Shown here one piece after another: positions 37,640 to 62,016 of a stretch of 64,000 bases of DNA. The stretch covers positions 73,452-137,451 of the forward strand of contig CAYTBY010000001.1 in NCBI GenBank assembly GCA_964436165.1, written 5' to 3'. Under the pieces are notes generated by a model. That model saw only the letters and a list, made by a program, of their open reading frames with translations. It had not been told where the DNA came from and ran no database searches. Numbering within the stretch: position 1 is the first letter of the stretch; each line of letters opens with the position of its first letter. The DNA comes from an uncultured Candidatus Saccharibacteria bacterium. GTDB lineage: Bacteria > Patescibacteriota > Minisyncoccia > 2-02-FULL-40-12 > GWA2-44-9. Position numbers and translations under genes: made by a program.

Positions 37640-37712
37640 TCCGCCCGGCTGGGATCGAACCAGCGACCACTTGCTTAAAAGGCAATTGCTCTACCAACTG
37701 AGCTACGGGCGG
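37640..37712 (-). tRNA. tRNA-Lys (anticodon UUU)
   Basis: Reverse complement ccgcccgTAgctcagttggtagagcAattgcCTTTTAAgcaagTggtcgctggttcgatcccagccgggcggA. 7-bp acceptor stem, D and T arms, anticodon loop cUUUUaa. CCA not encoded. Confidence 0.85.
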
Positions 37713-43717: not shown

Positions 43718-44656
43718 ATGAGATTAAAGCTTTACACTGTAACAATTACAATCATTGTTCTCTTTACCGTAAATATTTTTTTGGCTGTAAAAAATTCTCG
43801 TGATATAATTCTTAGCGAACCGGCATCCTTTAGCAATTATAATTATGATGACGAGGCTTACCTTCTTCCCATTTCTGAACCAAATTACATTCCTATTCTC
43901 AACGCTAATCTTCCCAGGCCGGTTCTAAGCGGTAAGTCAGCCCTGGTCTACGATACTCGTTCGAGCCGTTTTCTATACGAAAAAGATATAGATTTAAAAC
44001 TGCCAATCGCTTCGTTAACTAAAGTTTTGAGCGCGGTTATTGTTTTGGAAAAACTTAATTTGGAAGACATTGTAACCGTATCAGAGCAGTCTATAAAAGT
44101 CGACGGCGAGAAACAAGATTTATATTTAGGCGAAAAATTAAGCGTTAAAAATCTTCTCAAGCTGATGCTGATTGAATCATCCAATGATGCGGCTTATGCT
44201 TTGGCGGAATATGCAAAAACCAGAGATATTAACTTTATTGAAGCAATGAATGCTAAAGCCGCGGCTATTAGCATGAAGAATTCTTTATTTTTGGATCCAG
44301 CCGGTTTGGAGGATAGGGCCTATTCGACCGGAGAAGATTTAGTTAAACTGGTAGAATACTCCCTGAACTATCAGGAAATCTGGGATATATCTTCCGAGAA
44401 AACAGCGATAATAGAATCAAGCGACGAAAGGATAAAACATTCTGTGATTAGCACTAATCGTTTGCTGGGTTTGATAAAGGATATCGTCGGCGGTAAGACG
44501 GGTTTTACTGAAGGTGCTGGTCAGTGTATGATTCTTGTTGCCAGCGTACCAGAATACGACGGTAAGATTATTAGTATTGTTTTAGGTTCAGGCGATAGAT
44601 TTGGCGATACCCAGAAGTTAATAGAATGGACCAGAACGGCGTATAGGTGGAGATAG
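43718..44656 (+). CDS. D-alanyl-D-alanine carboxypeptidase (PBP5-like serine peptidase)
   Basis: SxxK (ASLTKVL), SxN (ESSND) and KTG (GKTGFT) motifs. N-terminal anchor. Confidence 0.75.
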   Translation: MRLKLYTVTITIIVLFTVNIFLAVKNSRDIILSEPASFSNYNYDDEAYLLPISEPNYIPILNANLPRPVLSGKSALVYDTRSSRFLYEKDIDLKLPIASLTKVLSAVIVLEKLNLEDIVTVSEQSIKVDGEKQDLYLGEKLSVKNLLKLMLIESSNDAAYALAEYAKTRDINFIEAMNAKAAAISMKNSLFLDPAGLEDRAYSTGEDLVKLVEYSLNYQEIWDISSEKTAIIESSDERIKHSVISTNRLLGLIKDIVGGKTGFTEGAGQCMILVASVPEYDGKIISIVLGSGDRFGDTQKLIEWTRTAYRWR

Positions 44657-44667
44657 ATCATTCAAAC

Positions 44668-44740
44668 GTAACTAGTAATTAGTAACTAGTAATTAGAAAA
44701 TTTAAGTATATTCAATTACCAATTACCAATTACCAATTAC
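44668..44740. repeat. Intergenic tandem repeats: 2 x TAACTAGTAATTAG, then 4 x CAATTAC (opposite orientation of the GTAATT core)
   Basis: gtaactagtaattagtaactagtaattag … caattaccaattaccaattaccaattac. Confidence 0.7.
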
Positions 44741-44743
44741 TCT

Positions 44744-45817
44744 TTGGCTGGAGACGTTTTCACAATCTTCAATGTTGTCCGTATTTTTGCCGTTGCAACG
44801 GTGGCTTTTTTTGTTACGCTTTTTATTACACCCTTTTGGACAAAAATTTTATATAAGTATCAGCTAGGCAAAGGAGTGGTCCGTCATGAGAATGCGCCTA
44901 TTTTTTCGGAACTTCACAAGAAAAAAGTCGGCATTCCCACAATGGGCGGAGTGGTTATTTGGGCGACGGTATCATTACTAACGATTGGCTATTGGCTGTT
45001 GGCAAAGCTATATCCCGATACGGCTATAGGCAGCATAAATTTTCTTTCCCGCGGCCAAACCTGGGTTCCTTTCGCCGCTTTAATAGTGGCGGCCTTATTT
45101 GGCTTATTGGATGATATGCTGGGTGTTTTGCGCAGAGGTCCTTGGGGCGGGGGATTAAGGATGCGCGACCGTTTGGTTATGTATGCAATTGTCGGGGCTG
45201 GTGGTGCCTGGTGGTTCTATGCCAAGCTCGGTTGGGATTTTATAAACATTCCTTTCCTTGGCGATTGGACCATCGGCTGGCTCTATATCCCGTTTTTTAT
45301 TTTTATAATTATTGCCTCGGCTTTTTCGGCTAATGAAACAGACGGCCTTGATGGCTTGGCGGCTGGAGTTTTTCTGACAATGTTCGGAGCCTATGCGGCT
45401 ATTGCTTTTGATCAGGGGAGAATGGATCTGGTTGTTTTTCTGGCGGCGATTATGGGTTCTTTGGTTGCTTTTTTGTGGTTTAACATCTATCCGGCCAGAT
45501 TTTTTATGGGTGATACCGGTTCAATGTCGCTTGGAATAACCCTTGGGGTCGTGGCGATGCTTACTAATGCGCCCCTGCTCCTTATCCCGATTGCCCTCGT
45601 TTTTATAATGGAATCCGGTTCGGTGATAATCCAGTTAACATCAAAAAAATTACGCCAGAAAAAAGTATTTCTCTCTACTCCAATCCACCACCACTTCGAA
45701 GCCCTCGGCTGGCCCGAAACCCAAGTTACAATGCGATTTTGGATGGTAAGTGCTATCGGGGCAATAATCGGTCTTATTATATTTCTCGTTGACTCCAAAA
45801 TCCCCCCGTTATTTTAA
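44744..45817 (+). CDS. mraY: Phospho-N-acetylmuramoyl-pentapeptide transferase
   Basis: DDMLGV, NETDGLDGLAAG, FMGDTGSMSLG; about 10 TM. Confidence 0.85.
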   Translation: MAGDVFTIFNVVRIFAVATVAFFVTLFITPFWTKILYKYQLGKGVVRHENAPIFSELHKKKVGIPTMGGVVIWATVSLLTIGYWLLAKLYPDTAIGSINFLSRGQTWVPFAALIVAALFGLLDDMLGVLRRGPWGGGLRMRDRLVMYAIVGAGGAWWFYAKLGWDFINIPFLGDWTIGWLYIPFFIFIIIASAFSANETDGLDGLAAGVFLTMFGAYAAIAFDQGRMDLVVFLAAIMGSLVAFLWFNIYPARFFMGDTGSMSLGITLGVVAMLTNAPLLLIPIALVFIMESGSVIIQLTSKKLRQKKVFLSTPIHHHFEALGWPETQVTMRFWMVSAIGAIIGLIIFLVDSKIPPLF

Positions 45818-51695: not shown

Positions 51696-53807
51696 TTATT
51701 TGTTTAGGGGGGCTAGATCACTCTTTATTTTTCTTATCTGCTCCCTTAGCGTCAAAGCTCTGTCGTACTCCATTTTTTTGGCGGCCCGTTCCATCATTTT
51801 GGTAAGTTGAGCGACAATCTTGCCTTTACTGCTATTACCAAAAACAAAAACCGTATCATCTTCTTCCTGGCCCCAACGACGAGTTTTACTAGTTCCATTA
51901 TTGGAAATCGGGAGGTCAAAATTACTAATTGATTTTTGAATGGTTGTTGGCGTAATGTCGTTGGCTTTATTGTGCTCTTCCTGTTTGGTTCTTCGGCGCA
52001 TGGTTTCGCCGATCGAAGCTTTAATTGATTTAGTCAACTTATCGGCATACATAATAACATGCCCGTTAACGTGTCTGGCCGCTCGGCCCATAGTTTGGAT
52101 TAGCGTCGTGGTATTGCGGAGGAATCCTTCTTTATCGGCGTCGAGGATGGCGATCAGTGAAACTTCAGGCAAATCCAAGCCTTCTCGCAAAAGATTTACT
52201 CCAACTAAGACATCATGGTGGCCCAGGCGGAAGTCCTTTAATATTTTTAATCGTTCAAGGGTTTTAATCTCAGAATGAATGTAGTTAACTTTTATTTTGG
52301 CATCGGCCAGATACTCCGATAAATCTTCGGCCATTCTCTTGGTTAAAGTGGTAACGATAACCCTTTCTTTATTCGCAGTCCGCTTTTTAATTTCTGAAAG
52401 CAGGTGTTCCATCTGATTTTTGCTAGGTTGTATTTCTATAGTCGGATCTAAGAGTCCTGTCGGCCGGATAAGCTGTTCGGCAATATTTGCTTTACCGGCC
52501 TTTTCAAGTTCATATATTCCGGGTGTGGCTGAAACATAAACTGTTTTCTGTATTCTTTTATTAAATTCTAAAAACTTTAACGGCCGGTTATCAAGGGCTG
52601 ACGGCAAGCGGAAACCGTAGTCAACTAGGGTGCTTTTTCTGGAATGATCCCCGTTAAACATTCCCCTGATCTGGGGAATAGAAATATGCGACTCGTCCAT
52701 AATGGTCAGGAATTCCCCCTTTGATCCGCCTTTGGCGGAAAAGAAATCAATCAGGGTATAGGGCGGTTCGCCAGGTTTGCGGAAATCAAGATGCCGCGAG
52801 TAGTTCTCAATGCCGTGGCAGTAGCCGGTTCGTTTCATCATGTCAATGTCGTACATTGTTTTTTCGTAAAGCCGGGCCGCTTCCTGGAGTTTTTTGGCTT
52901 TCTTTAAAACTTTCATTGTTTGCTGAAGTTCGCCTTTTATATTTTCTATAGCGATGGCAATTTTACTATCCGAAGTCAGCCAGTATTTTGCCGGTAGAAT
53001 TGTGGTTTCGACTATTTTTTCAAACTCAGGTTCTTTGGTTTCAAGTTCTTCCGGTTCAGAGATAGTGGCATGCATGACTTTGATCCCGTACGAAGTAGCC
53101 GCGCTGCGGTCCTTAGGACTCGCGACGAAGTCGCGAGCGCGACTTCGTACGGGATTATCCATGCTATTATTCGGAAACGTTATTTTAAAAATATTCTGGC
53201 CATCGGGGCCCATCAGTTCTATTTCATTTCTTGTTTTTCGGAAACATCCGCGCTTCAATTCTATATCTTGGGCATACTGGAGCCGTATCAATCCGCGGAT
53301 AAGTTCGTCCGGTTTTATTTTCTGGCCTTCAAATATGTTGAGGCCCATGTTTCTATATTCTTCCGGTGAGCCAAGGTTGTAGATGCAAGAAACAGAGGCG
53401 ACAATAATTACATCATCTCGTGACATTAAGGCTTGGGTTGTGGCATGGCGAAGCCGGTCAAGCTCCTCGTTTATTTTAGAATCTTTTTCGATGTAGGTGT
53501 CAGTGTGAGGTATGTAGGCTTCGGGCTGGTAGTAGTCGTAATATGAAACGAAATAATGGACGGCGTTGTGCGGGAAAAATTCTTTGAATTCTTTATATAA
53601 TTGGGCGGCGAGGGTCTTGTTGTGGGAAATAATCAGAGTTGGTTTCTGGTACTGCTCAATGACTTTAGCCATCGTAAACGTTTTTCCGCTTCCGGTTACA
53701 CCCAAAAGCACCTGGTGTTTTTTCCCGGACTTTAATCCCTTGGCGAGTTGTTGAATCGCCTGTGGCTGATCTCCTGTTGGCGAATATTTTGATATCAGTT
53801 TAAACAC
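51696..53807 (-). CDS. uvrB: Excinuclease ABC subunit B
   Basis: GVTGSGKTFTMAKVIE, YFVSYYDYYQPEAY, …GYCHGIENYSRHLD…; full length, about 45 aa longer than typical in domain 2. Confidence 0.9.
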   Translation of the reverse strand: MFKLISKYSPTGDQPQAIQQLAKGLKSGKKHQVLLGVTGSGKTFTMAKVIEQYQKPTLIISHNKTLAAQLYKEFKEFFPHNAVHYFVSYYDYYQPEAYIPHTDTYIEKDSKINEELDRLRHATTQALMSRDDVIIVASVSCIYNLGSPEEYRNMGLNIFEGQKIKPDELIRGLIRLQYAQDIELKRGCFRKTRNEIELMGPDGQNIFKITFPNNSMDNPVRSRARDFVASPKDRSAATSYGIKVMHATISEPEELETKEPEFEKIVETTILPAKYWLTSDSKIAIAIENIKGELQQTMKVLKKAKKLQEAARLYEKTMYDIDMMKRTGYCHGIENYSRHLDFRKPGEPPYTLIDFFSAKGGSKGEFLTIMDESHISIPQIRGMFNGDHSRKSTLVDYGFRLPSALDNRPLKFLEFNKRIQKTVYVSATPGIYELEKAGKANIAEQLIRPTGLLDPTIEIQPSKNQMEHLLSEIKKRTANKERVIVTTLTKRMAEDLSEYLADAKIKVNYIHSEIKTLERLKILKDFRLGHHDVLVGVNLLREGLDLPEVSLIAILDADKEGFLRNTTTLIQTMGRAARHVNGHVIMYADKLTKSIKASIGETMRRRTKQEEHNKANDITPTTIQKSISNFDLPISNNGTSKTRRWGQEEDDTVFVFGNSSKGKIVAQLTKMMERAAKKMEYDRALTLREQIRKIKSDLAPLNK
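53088..53153 (-). repeat. 66-bp GC-rich nested-palindrome element inserted in frame in uvrB (encodes VRSRARDFVASPKDRSAATSYG)
   Basis: cgtacgaagt…gtccttaggac…tcgcgacgaagtcgcga…acttcgtacg. Outer 10-bp inverted arms plus two internal perfect palindromes. About 68% GC inside an approximately 40% GC gene. Confidence 0.6.
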
Positions 53808-58475: not shown

Positions 58476-59321
58476 TTGTATAAATCGAAATCATTAATAA
58501 CGCTAGTTATCGGCGGCGTTCTTATGGTCGGTGTCGCCTTAGGTTCTTATATGTCAAGCGGATCGGTTCCGTTTGCTTTTGCCCATGATGATGACGATGA
58601 TGAGCAAAAAGTAGATAAAGAAGTTCTAGAGCAGTTATATTTGGCCGCTTTCGGCAGGCCGGTTGATGAGAATGGCAAGAAGTTCCATCTTGGTAAAAAT
58701 TTGAAACAAGTTTTAAGAGACATCAATAGCTCCGAAGAGCGAAGATACTATTCGGCTTTATTTAAGGCCGTAAAGGCCTATGAAGAAGCGGTGCGAGCGC
58801 CAGGTGATTTGAGCGCGGCTGATAAACAGAAATATCTTGATGCTATCAATACGGCTCTTGCAACTTTACTAGCCTGGGTTGAGACATTGCCTCAACAGCA
58901 CATTTGTAATGGAGTGGTCGGAATTATGGAGGCCCGTCAAGCTATTCAGGATGCGTATGATCGTATGAGCCCCACTGCCCAAGCTGCATCTCGAAAAGGA
59001 ATTTTCAATGCCCTGAAGCATATCGGTGGTCCTAAGAATATTGATTTACCGTTTAAGCGTTGTATAGATCCAAGCCCAACCCCGTCCCCATCTGTAAGCC
59101 CGACACCTTCAGTAACACCAACCCCAAGTGTAACTCCAACCCCGAGTGTAACCCCAACACCGAGTGCAACTCCAACCCCGACTCCTTCTGCAACTCCCAC
59201 TCCCACTCCCACGCCCTCCGCAACTCCCACCCCGACACCCGAAGTAACCCCGACTCCCACTCCGTCAGCTACCCCAACCCCGACTCCATCAGTCACTCCG
59301 ACTCCGACCCCTACTCCGTAA
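58476..59321 (+). CDS. Secreted protein with C-terminal Pro/Thr/Ser-rich tandem-repeat tail
   Basis: TTG start with RBS aaggaagg. Signal-like N-terminus. C-terminal (PTPS[VA]T)n for about 80 aa. Confidence 0.5.
59071..59318 (+). repeat. Coding tandem repeat (about 18-nt units) encoding the PT-rich linker
   Basis: ccaaccccgagtgtaactccaaccccgagtgtaacccc… repeated, degenerate. Confidence 0.7.
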
Positions 59322-59670: not shown

Positions 59671-60084
59671 ATGCCAAAAGAAACAATCGAAACGACGAAG
59701 TCGGCTAAAAAAACCAAGGCCTATCTTATGGTTCTCTTGATCGGAGTGGCTTTGACGGTCTGGTCAGTATTTTTTAAAAATAAGAATAGCGATAATGAGT
59801 TAGTCGGGAACAAAGAGATGTCAGACGAAGAAGGAGAAGATAGCGATTTGGGCAGCGAGGTGAGCAGTTATCTGGAAGGCAGGCTTGAGAATTCGGATAA
59901 TCTGGTGCAGGGTAATTATAAACTCATGTCGGCGCTTTCCCGTATTTATATAAAAACAAGCAGGGATTTTAGTTCTTTGGTTGGTTCTGATGTCCTTGTT
60001 ACCATTGATGGCTCAACGGAAAGTTTTACCCTCCTGAATATAGAAAAAAGAGTCGAGAAGGACGGCTATATTCAGTCGCGGTAA
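59671..60084 (+). CDS. Membrane-anchored hypothetical protein
   Basis: N-terminal TM LMVLLIGVALTVWSVFF; acidic linker. Confidence 0.4.
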   Translation: MPKETIETTKSAKKTKAYLMVLLIGVALTVWSVFFKNKNSDNELVGNKEMSDEEGEDSDLGSEVSSYLEGRLENSDNLVQGNYKLMSALSRIYIKTSRDFSSLVGSDVLVTIDGSTESFTLLNIEKRVEKDGYIQSR

Positions 60085-60091
60085 TCCCTCA

Positions 60092-60465
60092 ATAAAAAAA
60101 GCCCTCATCTATAGCTTCAAAAGCTAAAACTATAGATGAAGGCGGGAGAGATGAAACTCTCCCGTTGCTGGGGCGTTTAGGTCCCAGCTACCCACCGCCG
60201 GAAGGGTTGTTAACGCATAACCATCGCCACCTTTCTGATCGGCCGGACAAGCTATGAATGAGCTATCCGGGAAGCGCCCATTTGGCCTCGGCTTTTGGTA
60301 CTTGCTTATTTTTTAGGCGGACCTCTTGATCTGGCCACGTGAAATCCATTCGCGTAGCCCGTCCCGCGACATTGCGAGGACCGGGAATGTTGAGCCAGTC
60401 GGGGCTCAGAAAAGGTCTCTTCTGCTTATAGCAGTTTCGTGAGACCTTTTCTGAGCCTCTATTTG
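60092..60465 (-). ncRNA. Candidate structured non-coding RNA of about 375 nt (identity unresolved)
   Basis: No ORF of at least 60 codons. 17-bp perfect stem ggctcagaaaaggtctc/gagaccttttctgagcc with a nested ctgc-ttata-gcag. Further perfect hairpins: cgggagag/ctctcccg, gctggg/cccagc, gtcc…ggac. At the low-coordinate end, a hairpin plus U-run that is a terminator only on the minus strand. Confidence 0.3.
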
Positions 60466-60558
60466 TATCACAGGAAATTGACGTTATTTAAAGTATACCA
60501 TACTACATATTATCTGTCAATAGCTAAAATGGCCCAGAATATGCTATAAATTAAGTAA

Positions 60559-62016
60559 ATGCTCAAAGAAAGTAGTTTAGACAAAATACTTTATAGAGTC
60601 AAGAAGCTGATTCCGGGATCAGTTTTTAATTTTTTTCAGCCGTATTATCACGCTGTCTTAGCTTATGCCGGTGCGGCTTTTTACGGTTTTCCGTCAAGAA
60701 AATTAAAAGTTATTGGTGTGACCGGAACAAAAGGCAAGTCAACCGTTGTTTATCTGGCTTCTAAATTATTAGAAGCCAGGCTTCAAGGTGGACAGAAGCC
60801 TGGCTTCGGGAAGAGTGGAGTCGCCGCTTGCGGTTCCCTTGGTTTTAAAATAAAGAGTAAGGAATGGCCAAATACTTTAAAAATGACTATGCCCGGCCGG
60901 TTTCGTCTGCAGAAACTCATGGCCGAAGCGGTTAGGGCCGGCTGTGAATACTTTATTCTTGAAGTTACCTCCGAGGGCATCAAACAGAAAAGGCATTTGG
61001 GTATTTGGTTTGATTGCGCCGTTTTTACCAATCTTCACAAAGAACATATTGAAAGCCACGGTTCATTCGAGAATTATTATCAGGCCAAGCAGGAATTATT
61101 CAGGCGGACAAAAAATATCCATGTTATCAATGCCGATGACCAGTATACCAAATTATTAGGTGATTTTCCGGCTGAACATAAAATATTTTACGGTTTTACC
61201 AAAGGTGACTTGGTTGCCGGTAATTTAAAACTTTCTGATCTCGGTTCTTCTTTTGAGGTTTATGGTACGACTTATAATATCCACCTGGCCGGGAAGTTTA
61301 ATATTTTAAATTGTCTGGCTGTTTTATCGATCGGCGCGATGTATGGCATAGATCTGCCCTCGGCAAAACATATACTAGAATCAGTCAAATTTATCCCTGG
61401 CAGAATGGAGTTTATCCCTGCCTTCGTTAAAACTTCGGCGGGCGAGCAAAAAGAACCGTTCAAGGTGGTGGTGGATTATGCACATACACCCGAGTCGTTA
61501 CGAAGTGTTTATGAAACGTTAAAAAATAGTCCTCTTTCGCGCAAGGCTTCGGAGGACGCCCAAAATACAAAACGTAAGCTTATATGTATTTTGGGCGCTG
61601 CCGGGGGCGGGAGGGACAAGTGGAAGAGGCCGGAGTTTGGGAGAATAGCGGCGCAGTACTGTGATGAAATAATTCTGACGAATGAAGACCCCTATGAAGA
61701 AAACCCAGAAGCAATTCTGGAAGAAATTGCTTCTGGGTTTTCGCAAGCGCCAAATCACAAATCATCCCGATTTTATCGAGGATCCTCGATTGCAAAGCAA
61801 TCGGGACAAATCACAAATAAATCCCAAGCTCCAAATGTCCAAAAAATTATGGATAGAAAAGAAGCCATAAAGAAGGCCTTGACTTTAGCTCAAGAGGGTG
61901 ATACTGTAATCATCACGGGCAAAGGTTCGGAGACTTCAATGGCCGTATCGGGGAATAGGAAAATTCCCTGGTCGGACAAGGGAGTTATTGAGGAGTTTTT
62001 GACGACGAAATACTGA
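60559..62016 (+). CDS. Mur ligase family protein (MurE-like)
   Basis: VIGVTGTKGKSTV (P-loop), …DYAHTPESL…; carries two in-frame repeat insertions (61529-61558 and 61751-61818). Confidence 0.7.
   Translation: MLKESSLDKILYRVKKLIPGSVFNFFQPYYHAVLAYAGAAFYGFPSRKLKVIGVTGTKGKSTVVYLASKLLEARLQGGQKPGFGKSGVAACGSLGFKIKSKEWPNTLKMTMPGRFRLQKLMAEAVRAGCEYFILEVTSEGIKQKRHLGIWFDCAVFTNLHKEHIESHGSFENYYQAKQELFRRTKNIHVINADDQYTKLLGDFPAEHKIFYGFTKGDLVAGNLKLSDLGSSFEVYGTTYNIHLAGKFNILNCLAVLSIGAMYGIDLPSAKHILESVKFIPGRMEFIPAFVKTSAGEQKEPFKVVVDYAHTPESLRSVYETLKNSPLSRKASEDAQNTKRKLICILGAAGGGRDKWKRPEFGRIAAQYCDEIILTNEDPYEENPEAILEEIASGFSQAPNHKSSRFYRGSSIAKQSGQITNKSQAPNVQKIMDRKEAIKKALTLAQEGDTVIITGKGSETSMAVSGNRKIPWSDKGVIEEFLTTKY
61751..61818 (+). 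mobile_element. MITE-like element inserted in frame in the Mur ligase gene: 12-bp direct repeats flanking a 40-bp palindromic core
   Basis: caaatcacaaat | cat-cccgatt-ttATCGAGGATCCTCGATtgcaaagc-aatcggg-a | caaatcacaaat. Encodes HKSSRFYRGSSIAKQSGQITNK between duplicated SQAPN. Confidence 0.6.

Follow-up and report, generated by a model that had tools for sequence, protein, structure and literature searches.

To our knowledge, very few classes of large (>400 nt) structured bacterial RNA have been described beyond rRNA, RNase P RNA, transfer-messenger RNA (tmRNA) and introns, and almost nothing about non-coding RNA in the candidate phyla radiation (CPR), whose genomes measure ∼1 Mb or less, has come to our attention. 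The architectures of OLE, GOLLD, ROOL and raiA proved unexpected; in GOLLD, one half of the molecule is variable. Here we analyze a 64,000-nt stretch of DNA (the window: positions 73,452–137,451 of contig CAYTBY010000001.1, assembly GCA_964436165.1, deposited as an uncultured Candidatus Saccharibacteria bacterium) and describe a region directly upstream of murE that probably holds an independent minus-strand gene for a stable, structured non-coding RNA of ∼393 nt, a member of an uncatalogued modular family whose sizes span 0.39–0.95 kb.

The locus invites comparison with GOLLD, ROOL and OLE, and also with raiA and HEARO: like these it stands alone as a gene, with a promoter and a terminator of its own, both predicted here. 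It further shares with them several hundred nucleotides of dense, G+C-enriched structure in an A+T-rich genome, a conserved part joined to highly variable parts, and a narrow taxonomic range. It differs in coming from CPR bacteria (Yanofskybacteria), in matching none of their Rfam models, and in occupying a fixed chromosomal site beside murE, whereas those RNAs lie in prophages or next to tRNAs. Its conserved part is moreover small (a leader, the H1 hairpin and the M2 motif, ∼150 nt) and can occur twice per RNA.

The other natural comparison is with the diverged RNase P RNAs of CPR bacteria. In 10 of 35 circular CPR genomes the RNase P RNA fell below the Rfam cut-offs, with helices missing or extended; RF00010 still picked such RNAs up once the thresholds were lowered, and they keep P4 and other core features (Lui et al. 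2021, PMC8172020). The RNA upstream of murE resembles them in its CPR host, in the size of the window copy and in scoring below default Rfam thresholds (PMC8172020). It differs in giving no match at E≤10, in having neither a P4-type long-range helix nor a common multi-helix core, and in that close relatives lack the gene at this locus.

Transcription signals and fold

A preliminary description of the window had singled out 60092–60465 as a highly structured interval without ORFs, bearing a hairpin followed by a U-run on the minus strand only, and had proposed a minus-strand transcript of ∼375 nt. These observations held. The list of open reading frames (ORFs) has none above 38 aa in the interval. 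A terminator scan called the hairpin, at 60101–60143 rather than 60097–60138, on the minus strand only, with 20 pairs and the tail TTTTTTTATT; in that direction it runs into TTTTTTT (60094–60100) and on the plus strand into GGGAGAG, so that it fits the pattern of an intrinsic terminator on the minus strand. At the other end, a consensus scan found a minus-strand sigma-70-type promoter (60520–60492) with 11 of 12 consensus matches and a 17-nt spacer ending in TGG, an extended −10 (Table 1). The 5' end was taken as lying 6–8 nt downstream of the −10 hexamer and the 3' end as lying in the U-run, which supports a predicted transcript of ∼375–390 nt.

Neither signal is peculiar to the window. The promoter layout TTGACN-17-TGn-TAnnnT recurs on the same strand and at the equivalent place in all ten members of the family described below, and a G+C-rich hairpin with a U-run forms the 3' end, again on that strand, in all eight full-length members. 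The gene so delimited is divergent from murE and convergent with the plus-strand gene upstream of murE, whose stop codon is 8 nt from the RNA 3' end.

Folding of 60092–60465 gave −160 kcal/mol, against −118 ± 5.9 kcal/mol for dinucleotide shuffles (z = −7.1), and none of 100 shuffles folded as well. The plus strand of the interval gave z = −7.5; because both strands fold equally well, the folding energy leaves the strand undecided. G+C content is 0.53–0.54 in the RNA region and 0.34–0.44 in its flanks, and the region occurs once in the window. Every stem listed in the preliminary description was found, with coordinates shifted by 4–5 nt for the first and the last: the 17-bp perfect stem pairs 60403–60419 with 60441–60457 (given before as 60399–60452) around a nested 5-bp ctgct-tat-agcag hairpin (60422–60434), cgggagag at 60143–60150 pairs with ctctcccg at 60157–60164, gctggg at 60167–60172 pairs with cccagc at 60183–60188, and the gtcc..cgc..gcg..ggac hairpin spans 60362–60382. 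On sequence evidence the region thus has what would be expected of an independent bacterial non-coding RNA gene, namely its own predicted promoter and terminator on one strand, no ORF, and a covarying structure.

A family at one chromosomal site

We fetched 80 genome loci by alignment of the MurE protein and searched them with nhmmer for relatives of the RNA region. Relatives were found only directly upstream of murE, antisense to it, in L003, L004 and L006. Contigs encoding the closest MurE proteins added L082, L084, L092, L093, L096 and L098, the last identical to L099 and L100. L096 is the closest relative (MurE 80% identical), but a partial contig. The family thus consists of the window copy and nine Candidatus Yanofskybacteria-like assemblies, all carrying the gene at the same site in the same orientation; the best relatives of the window MurE are themselves Candidatus Yanofskybacteria, in the Paceibacteria group of the CPR.

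Approximate promoter-to-terminator lengths are 393 nt for the window, 560 for L092, 600 for L098, 610 for L093, 615 for L082, 635 for L004, 700 for L003 and 950 for L006. The window copy is therefore the shortest member, with homologs at 0.56–0.95 kb, and the size match to RNase P RNA or tmRNA to which the preliminary description had drawn attention is a coincidence of this copy, as homologs reach ∼950 nt.

The site is empty, with murE abutting the upstream gene, in L002, L005, L007–L011, L085, L094, L095, L097 and L101, and further contig look-ups (P0008, P0010, P0013, P0014 and P0019) gave loci without the RNA. A gap of 700 nt upstream of murE in L039 was considered and holds sequence unrelated to the RNA. 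A covariance model built on H1 (R1) matched known members only in 758 kb. In a metagenome scan with the H1 pattern there was one true member, L089, of the same sequence as L003. Five look-alikes from that scan (L086–L088, L090 and L091) were rejected: they were forced by the pattern, scored 23–31 bits with R1 and did so equally on both strands, and L091 lies in apparent coding sequence. Scans of viral contigs and BLAST against phages returned nothing, or chance matches within apparent coding regions.

Four of these look-alikes (L086, L087, L088 and L090), all from sample Ga0307982, belong to one family of repeats, in which very long inverted repeats are nested. The centre of the repeats resembles the base of H1 (CCCCCCUCGGGGGGGCUCAGAAAAG...CUUUUUCUGAGCCCCGGACUGG), with CUCGGGGUUCAUAUAA ∼100 nt later. 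The resemblance is mostly imposed by the search pattern (R1 scores of 25–31 bits, on both strands), with some extra shared bases outside it.

Independent assemblies break inside or beside the RNA gene in four cases, L001 (which starts at window position ∼60406), L083, L084 and L096, two of them within the H1 inverted repeat. This suggests that assembly is disrupted either by the long perfect hairpin or by variation of the RNA between strains.

On its other side, murE of the window is preceded on the plus strand by an extended −10-like element (TGCTATAAA). The same element, TGnTATAwT, stands 8–11 nt before the murE ATG and outside the RNA element in L003, L004, L006, L082, L084, L092 and L096 as well. 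This suggests that the murE mRNA may be leaderless or nearly so, and transcribed back-to-back with the RNA gene. In L085, L094 and L095, which have no RNA gene, murE abuts the gene upstream.

Leader, H1 and M2 form the shared core

All members have in common a 5' leader, the H1 hairpin and at least one copy of the M2 motif. Comparison with relatives uncovered compensatory changes in H1, M2, M3 and M6. We counted pairs in M2, M3, M6 and M7 after registering the stems by hand, as MAFFT alignments of M2 and of the 3' half were out of register for some members.

H1 is well supported by sequence comparison as the hallmark of the family. Across members its two arms read GGGGUUCAGAAAAGGYCUC and GAGRCCUUUUCCGAGCCCC, and between them lie an A-rich internal loop and a small apical hairpin. 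In an alignment of eight sequences, 92.7% of cells were paired, four pairs had changed on both sides, and the covariation score was reached by 0 of 500 shuffles. Sliding the partner strand by 1–3 columns left 29–61% paired. L082 and L098 retain the helix with its stem sequence largely replaced; in L082, for example, GAAAAG/CUUUUC has become CCCAGC/GCUGGG.

The family form of M2 is CUCAACAU-CCCG[hairpin]CGGG-CUAGACCAA, the inner hairpin often having an AAUNNC loop. Its outer stem CCCG/CGGG is replaced by UCCG/CGGA in L096 and by CCCA/UGGG in L093, two independent compensatory events, and the inner stem covaries as well. A regular-expression scan for M2 over both strands of 830 kb located it within the RNA genes or beside them and returned two chance matches in addition.

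The core is organized as a unit of a UAUA-rich strand, a long helix, CUCAACAU, a hairpin and CUAGACCAA, of which the longer RNAs have two and the window copy, L098 and L082 one each. Because the core unit occurs once there, the window copy can be regarded as a complete single-unit form.

Variable modules downstream of the core

Modules M3–M7 are shared by the window copy, L006 and L004, and partly by L003, L092, L093 and L096. The basal six pairs of M3 are kept with differing sequences: CCGGAU/GUCCGG in the window, CCCGCA/UGCGGG in L006 and GUCCGC/GCGGAC in L004. The string CAGAAAGGUGGYGAU is common to the window, L006 and L004, and partly to L003, L092, L093 and L096. In the GGUU...AACC hairpin the loop UGCGYUAAC is conserved, a case of sequence conservation only, and the M5 stem, identical in the window, L006 and L004, is neutral with regard to covariation. 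The M6 helix takes the form GGAGAGC/GCUCUCC in L006 (with a UUCG loop), GGGAGGG/CCCUCCC in L004 and GGCGCGG/CCGCGCC in L092.

M7, whose hairpin is the predicted terminator of the window copy, departs from an ordinary intrinsic terminator in that its strands CCUUCAUC/GAUGAGGG are conserved in six members, with a U–G wobble invariant in all six, and in five homologs (L003, L004, L006, L092 and L093) it is internal and without a U-run. For the latter reason we take M7 to be a conserved structural module co-opted as a terminator in the window copy. The wobble, together with a frequent U–G pair in H1, fits the minus strand, because these positions would be C–A mismatches on the plus strand.

In those same five homologs, M7 is followed by another helix and then by a second copy of M2. 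Beyond the second M2 copy, L003, L006 and L093 carry a 300-nt domain, D5, in which GAGCGGGAGAACCCCGC and GCCUCCAAAGYCUCGGUCC occur together with GNRA-capped hairpins. The window copy, L004 and L092 have no D5. L098 has H1 and M2 joined straight to D5, without M3–M7. A possible pairing of the leader (GUUCUUUAYAU) with AUGUAAAAAAC of D5, at 9–10 of 10–11 positions by eye, was not relied on, both strings being A/U-rich. A hammerhead-like GAUGA-[helix]-UCAAC arrangement in the two-unit RNAs was also discarded; its core nucleotides differ and there is no Rfam match.

Table 1. Features of the RNA gene, its neighbours and other parts of the window (window coordinates)
Feature	Coordinates	Strand	Remarks
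Sigma-70-type promoter	60492–60520	−	−35 TTGACA 60520–60515; −10 TATACT 60497–60492
Predicted primary transcript, ∼393 nt	60093–60485	−	From promoter and terminator
5' leader, UAACGUCAAUUUCCUGUGAUACAAAUAG	60458–60485	−	Matches homolog leader, roughly AAGACGNUAAAG-UUCYUUAUAU, by aligned 5' ends
H1	60403–60457	−	17-bp stem, asymmetric A-rich internal loop (ACGAAA / AA), apical 5-bp hairpin CUGCU-AUA-AGCAG
M2 core	60349–60394	−	CUCAACAU, U, CCCG, GU, hairpin CCUCGC-AAUGUC-GCGGGA, CGGG, CUACGCGAA
Central stretch, poorly conserved	60271–60348	−	AAGAGG-UCCG-CCU (possible UNCG-type hairpin) and GCCGAGGCCAAAU motif
M3 hairpin, CCGGAUAGCU-CAUUCAU-AGCUUGUCCGG	60243–60270	−	After CCAAAU motif
Conserved CAGAAAGGUGGCGAU, then hairpin GGUU-AUGCGUUAAC-AACC	60205–60237	−	Alignment of window, L096 and L006
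M5 hairpin, GCUGGG-ACCUAAACGC-CCCAGC	60167–60188	−	Preceded by conserved GGGUAG
M6 hairpin, GGGAGAG-UUUCAU-CUCUCCC	60144–60163	−	Helix kept in homologs
M7 hairpin, GCCUUCAUCUAUAG...CUAUAGAUGAGGGC (60101–60143), and U7 (60094–60100)	60094–60143	−	Terminator scan, stem comparison
murE	60559–62016	+	Mur_ligase_M and Mur_ligase_C domains
Extended −10-like element before murE	60542–60561	+	TGCTATAAA
Upstream neighbour gene	59671–60084	+	137 aa, no Pfam match
ORF with (T/S)P repeats	58476–59321	+	281 aa, no Pfam match
Palindromic element in UvrB gene	53070–53160	−	∼85 nt, ATCCCGTACGAAGT...ACTTCGTACGGGAT
UvrB gene	51696–53807
A+T-rich imperfect palindrome	44662–44747		Between ORFs 43718–44656 (+) and 44744–45817 (+)
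tRNA-Lys	37640–37712	−	Anticodon UUU

Comparison with known RNA families

The window copy and the homologs L082, L089, L006 and L098 were compared with Rfam 15 at E≤10 with permissive filters. None of the five matched any family beyond chance hits to miRNA-type hairpins; matches below roughly 15–20 bits would go unlisted in this search. A permissive scan of the full 64 kb gave no additional match for the RNA. At gathering thresholds, the only match in the whole window was a tRNA-Lys, and four homologous loci gave nothing. Neither RNase P model (RF00010 or RF00011) matched at its gathering score, or at E≤10 on short stretches of the five members, nor did the models of OLE, GOLLD, ROOL, raiA and HEARO in these members at E≤10; models of group I and II introns and of ribozymes were likewise without a match. 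ARAGORN found no tmRNA in the window or in nine loci, and Rfam gave none. Signal recognition particle (SRP) RNA and 6S RNA had no Rfam match either, and the multi-hairpin architecture resembles neither.

Reading of the sequences agreed. The strands of P4 (GGAAAGUCCGG ... ACAGAA-CCGGCUUA) and the enclosing P1 of RNase P RNA are absent, and in the nearest look-alikes of P4, CCCG/CGGG of M2 and CCUUCAUC/GAUGAGGG of M7, each strand belongs to a local hairpin that shows compensatory changes. Threading onto RNase P type A by eye yielded three colinear resemblances (GGCCAAAU, GGGUAG and CCGCCUUCAUC) and failed, those strands pairing locally. No multi-helix catalytic core runs through all members, whose shared parts are the leader, H1 and M2 only. 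Full-text literature searches found no description of such an RNA. The family is thus undescribed in Rfam 15 and the searchable literature, and is restricted to one clade and one locus.

Interpretation and alternative explanations

In the reading that we propose, a strong sigma-70 promoter belonging to the gene itself would drive transcription of the RNA away from murE, and the intrinsic terminator would end it. The 5' leader, H1 with its A-rich internal loop, and M2 would form the functional core, for instance as a platform to which a protein or a further RNA binds. Accessory domains, M3–M7 in the window and a second core copy and D5 elsewhere, would be swapped, duplicated or lost between genomes. 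We infer a trans-acting role, exerted by the folded RNA or a ribonucleoprotein and not by base-pairing with a neighbouring mRNA. What directly supports this proposal at the sequence level is the set of transcription signals, the homology and synteny at a fixed locus, and the several helices with compensatory changes.

Several points weigh against it. Equally close relatives have an empty locus, so the RNA is either dispensable or encoded elsewhere in those genomes. The ten members, eight of them full length, come from one narrow clade, and the covariation is thin, amounting to few independent events. The central stretch of the window copy (60271–60348) matches L096, L006 and L004 in scattered patches only, and its structure comes from single-sequence folding alone. 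The window copy is without the second core copy and the D5 domain of most homologs, and could be a decayed remnant instead of a functional short form. RNAalifold on four sequences returned local hairpins only, with a covariation term of 0, and for this reason we claim no global fold.

Other explanations were weighed against the same evidence. It is very unlikely that we are dealing with an RNase P RNA, or one of the other universal housekeeping RNAs, so highly diverged that the standard covariance models miss it. Such an RNA would suit the ∼390-nt size and strong predicted expression signals of the window copy, the three short by-eye resemblances to RNase P RNA (GGCCAAAU, GGGUAG and CCGCCUUCAUC), the absence of another RNase P RNA from the 64-kb window, and the finding that some CPR RNase P RNAs score below Rfam cut-offs (PMC8172020). 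But the latter remained detectable with RF00010 and kept many conserved features (PMC8172020), whereas five members here gave no match to RNase P, tmRNA, SRP or 6S models at E≤10 and nothing with ARAGORN. The P4 look-alike CCCG is half of a local, covarying hairpin, CCUUCAUC pairs locally with GAUGAGGG, and the locus is empty in close relatives. Nor could a ribozyme core vary as this RNA does, L098 being without M3–M7 and the window copy without D5. The preliminary description had left the choice between a divergent housekeeping RNA and a novel one; with no Rfam or ARAGORN match and no shared multi-helix core, the former is not supported and a novel RNA is favored. A plus-strand cis-regulatory leader of murE, a riboswitch or attenuator with H1 as terminator or anti-terminator, is hardly credible. 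The element does lie directly upstream of murE in every case, its plus strand folds as well (z = −7.5), and H1 is ∼100 nt before the murE start codon. However, H1 is followed by no plus-strand U-run in the window or in homologs, the minus strand carries every one of the conserved promoters and terminators, and the invariant M7 U–G and the H1 U–G pairs would become C–A mismatches. The −10-like element of murE, 8–11 nt before the ATG, is downstream of the whole structure, and murE of close relatives does without the latter. We exclude the leader because of this strand evidence together with the presence of murE's own TGnTATAwT in most RNA-bearing loci.

It is also conceivable, though improbable, that antisense, convergent transcription is itself what matters, insulating murE or blocking read-through from upstream, with the RNA incidental. 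In the RNA-less L085, L094 and L095, murE follows directly on the upstream gene, presumably in a common transcript; in RNA-bearing loci the two genes are separated, murE has its own promoter-like element, and the RNA gene runs towards the plus-strand gene upstream, ending 8 nt from its stop codon. For interference, however, covarying helices, a conserved core motif and structured modules totalling as much as 950 nt would be unnecessary, and both the raised G+C content and the z-score of the fold speak for selection acting on the RNA itself. About as doubtful is the idea that the RNA belongs to, or is a relic of, a selfish or mobile element (degenerate intron-like, or a satellite) that inserted upstream of murE in an ancestor and is decaying at differing rates. 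Its patchy presence among close relatives at one locus, its extreme variation in length and modules with duplication of the core unit, and the dispersed palindromic element inserted in the L082 copy would agree with such an origin. Speaking against it are the constant site and orientation, the single copy per locus and in the window, the lack of flanking repeats and of any transposase, reverse transcriptase or nuclease in the neighbourhoods, the unmatched intron, HEARO and ribozyme models, the absence of copies from the viral contigs and phage genomes searched, and a near-consensus promoter in all ten copies. Both interference and a selfish origin are possible as minor readings, but neither explains the covarying structure together with near-consensus promoters in ten copies.

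The independent RNA gene thus remains our preferred explanation. Given CPR genomes of ∼1 Mb or less, the retention of a strongly promoted RNA gene of 0.4–1 kb implies that it is of real use. Whether the window copy is in addition the founding example of a new CPR (Yanofskybacteria) class of large modular structured RNAs with a repeatable core unit we regard as an even call. In such a class, a leader with the UAUA motif, a long helix and CUCAACAU-hairpin-CUAGACCAA would make up a unit, and one or two units would carry interchangeable accessory domains. If so, the RNA could be a ribonucleoprotein scaffold or ribozyme for a function peculiar to ultra-small, host-dependent cells. The family would also provide a natural experiment in RNA modularity, with one core, different domains and one or two units per RNA, and it gives metatranscriptomics, surveys with covariance models and structure determination something concrete to aim at.

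Other features of the window

The tRNA-Lys gene is the sole RNA of a known family in the window (Table 1). The UvrB gene contains in frame, just after the UvrB interaction domain, a palindromic element that adds the peptide NPVRSRARDFVASPKDRSAATSYGI to the protein. Relatives of this element occur in the L082 homolog of the RNA, where one is inserted as a dispersed palindrome, and also in L008 (several copies) and L020 (one copy). The element appears to be a dispersed Yanofskybacteria repeat, similar to Rickettsia palindromic elements (RPE) or miniature inverted-repeat transposable elements (MITE), that would tolerate insertion into both protein and RNA genes.

Between two plus-strand ORFs lies an A+T-rich imperfect palindrome with short tandem units (GTAACTAGTAATTAG twice ... 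CAATTAC four times), which drew a chance match to a miRNA model (E = 0.003) and may be a terminator or a repeat element. The C-terminal ∼90 residues of the 281-aa ORF product consist of (T/S)P repeats, and these push the local GC skew to an extreme −0.4 to −0.64; judging from its sequence, this is probably a secreted or cell-surface linker protein.

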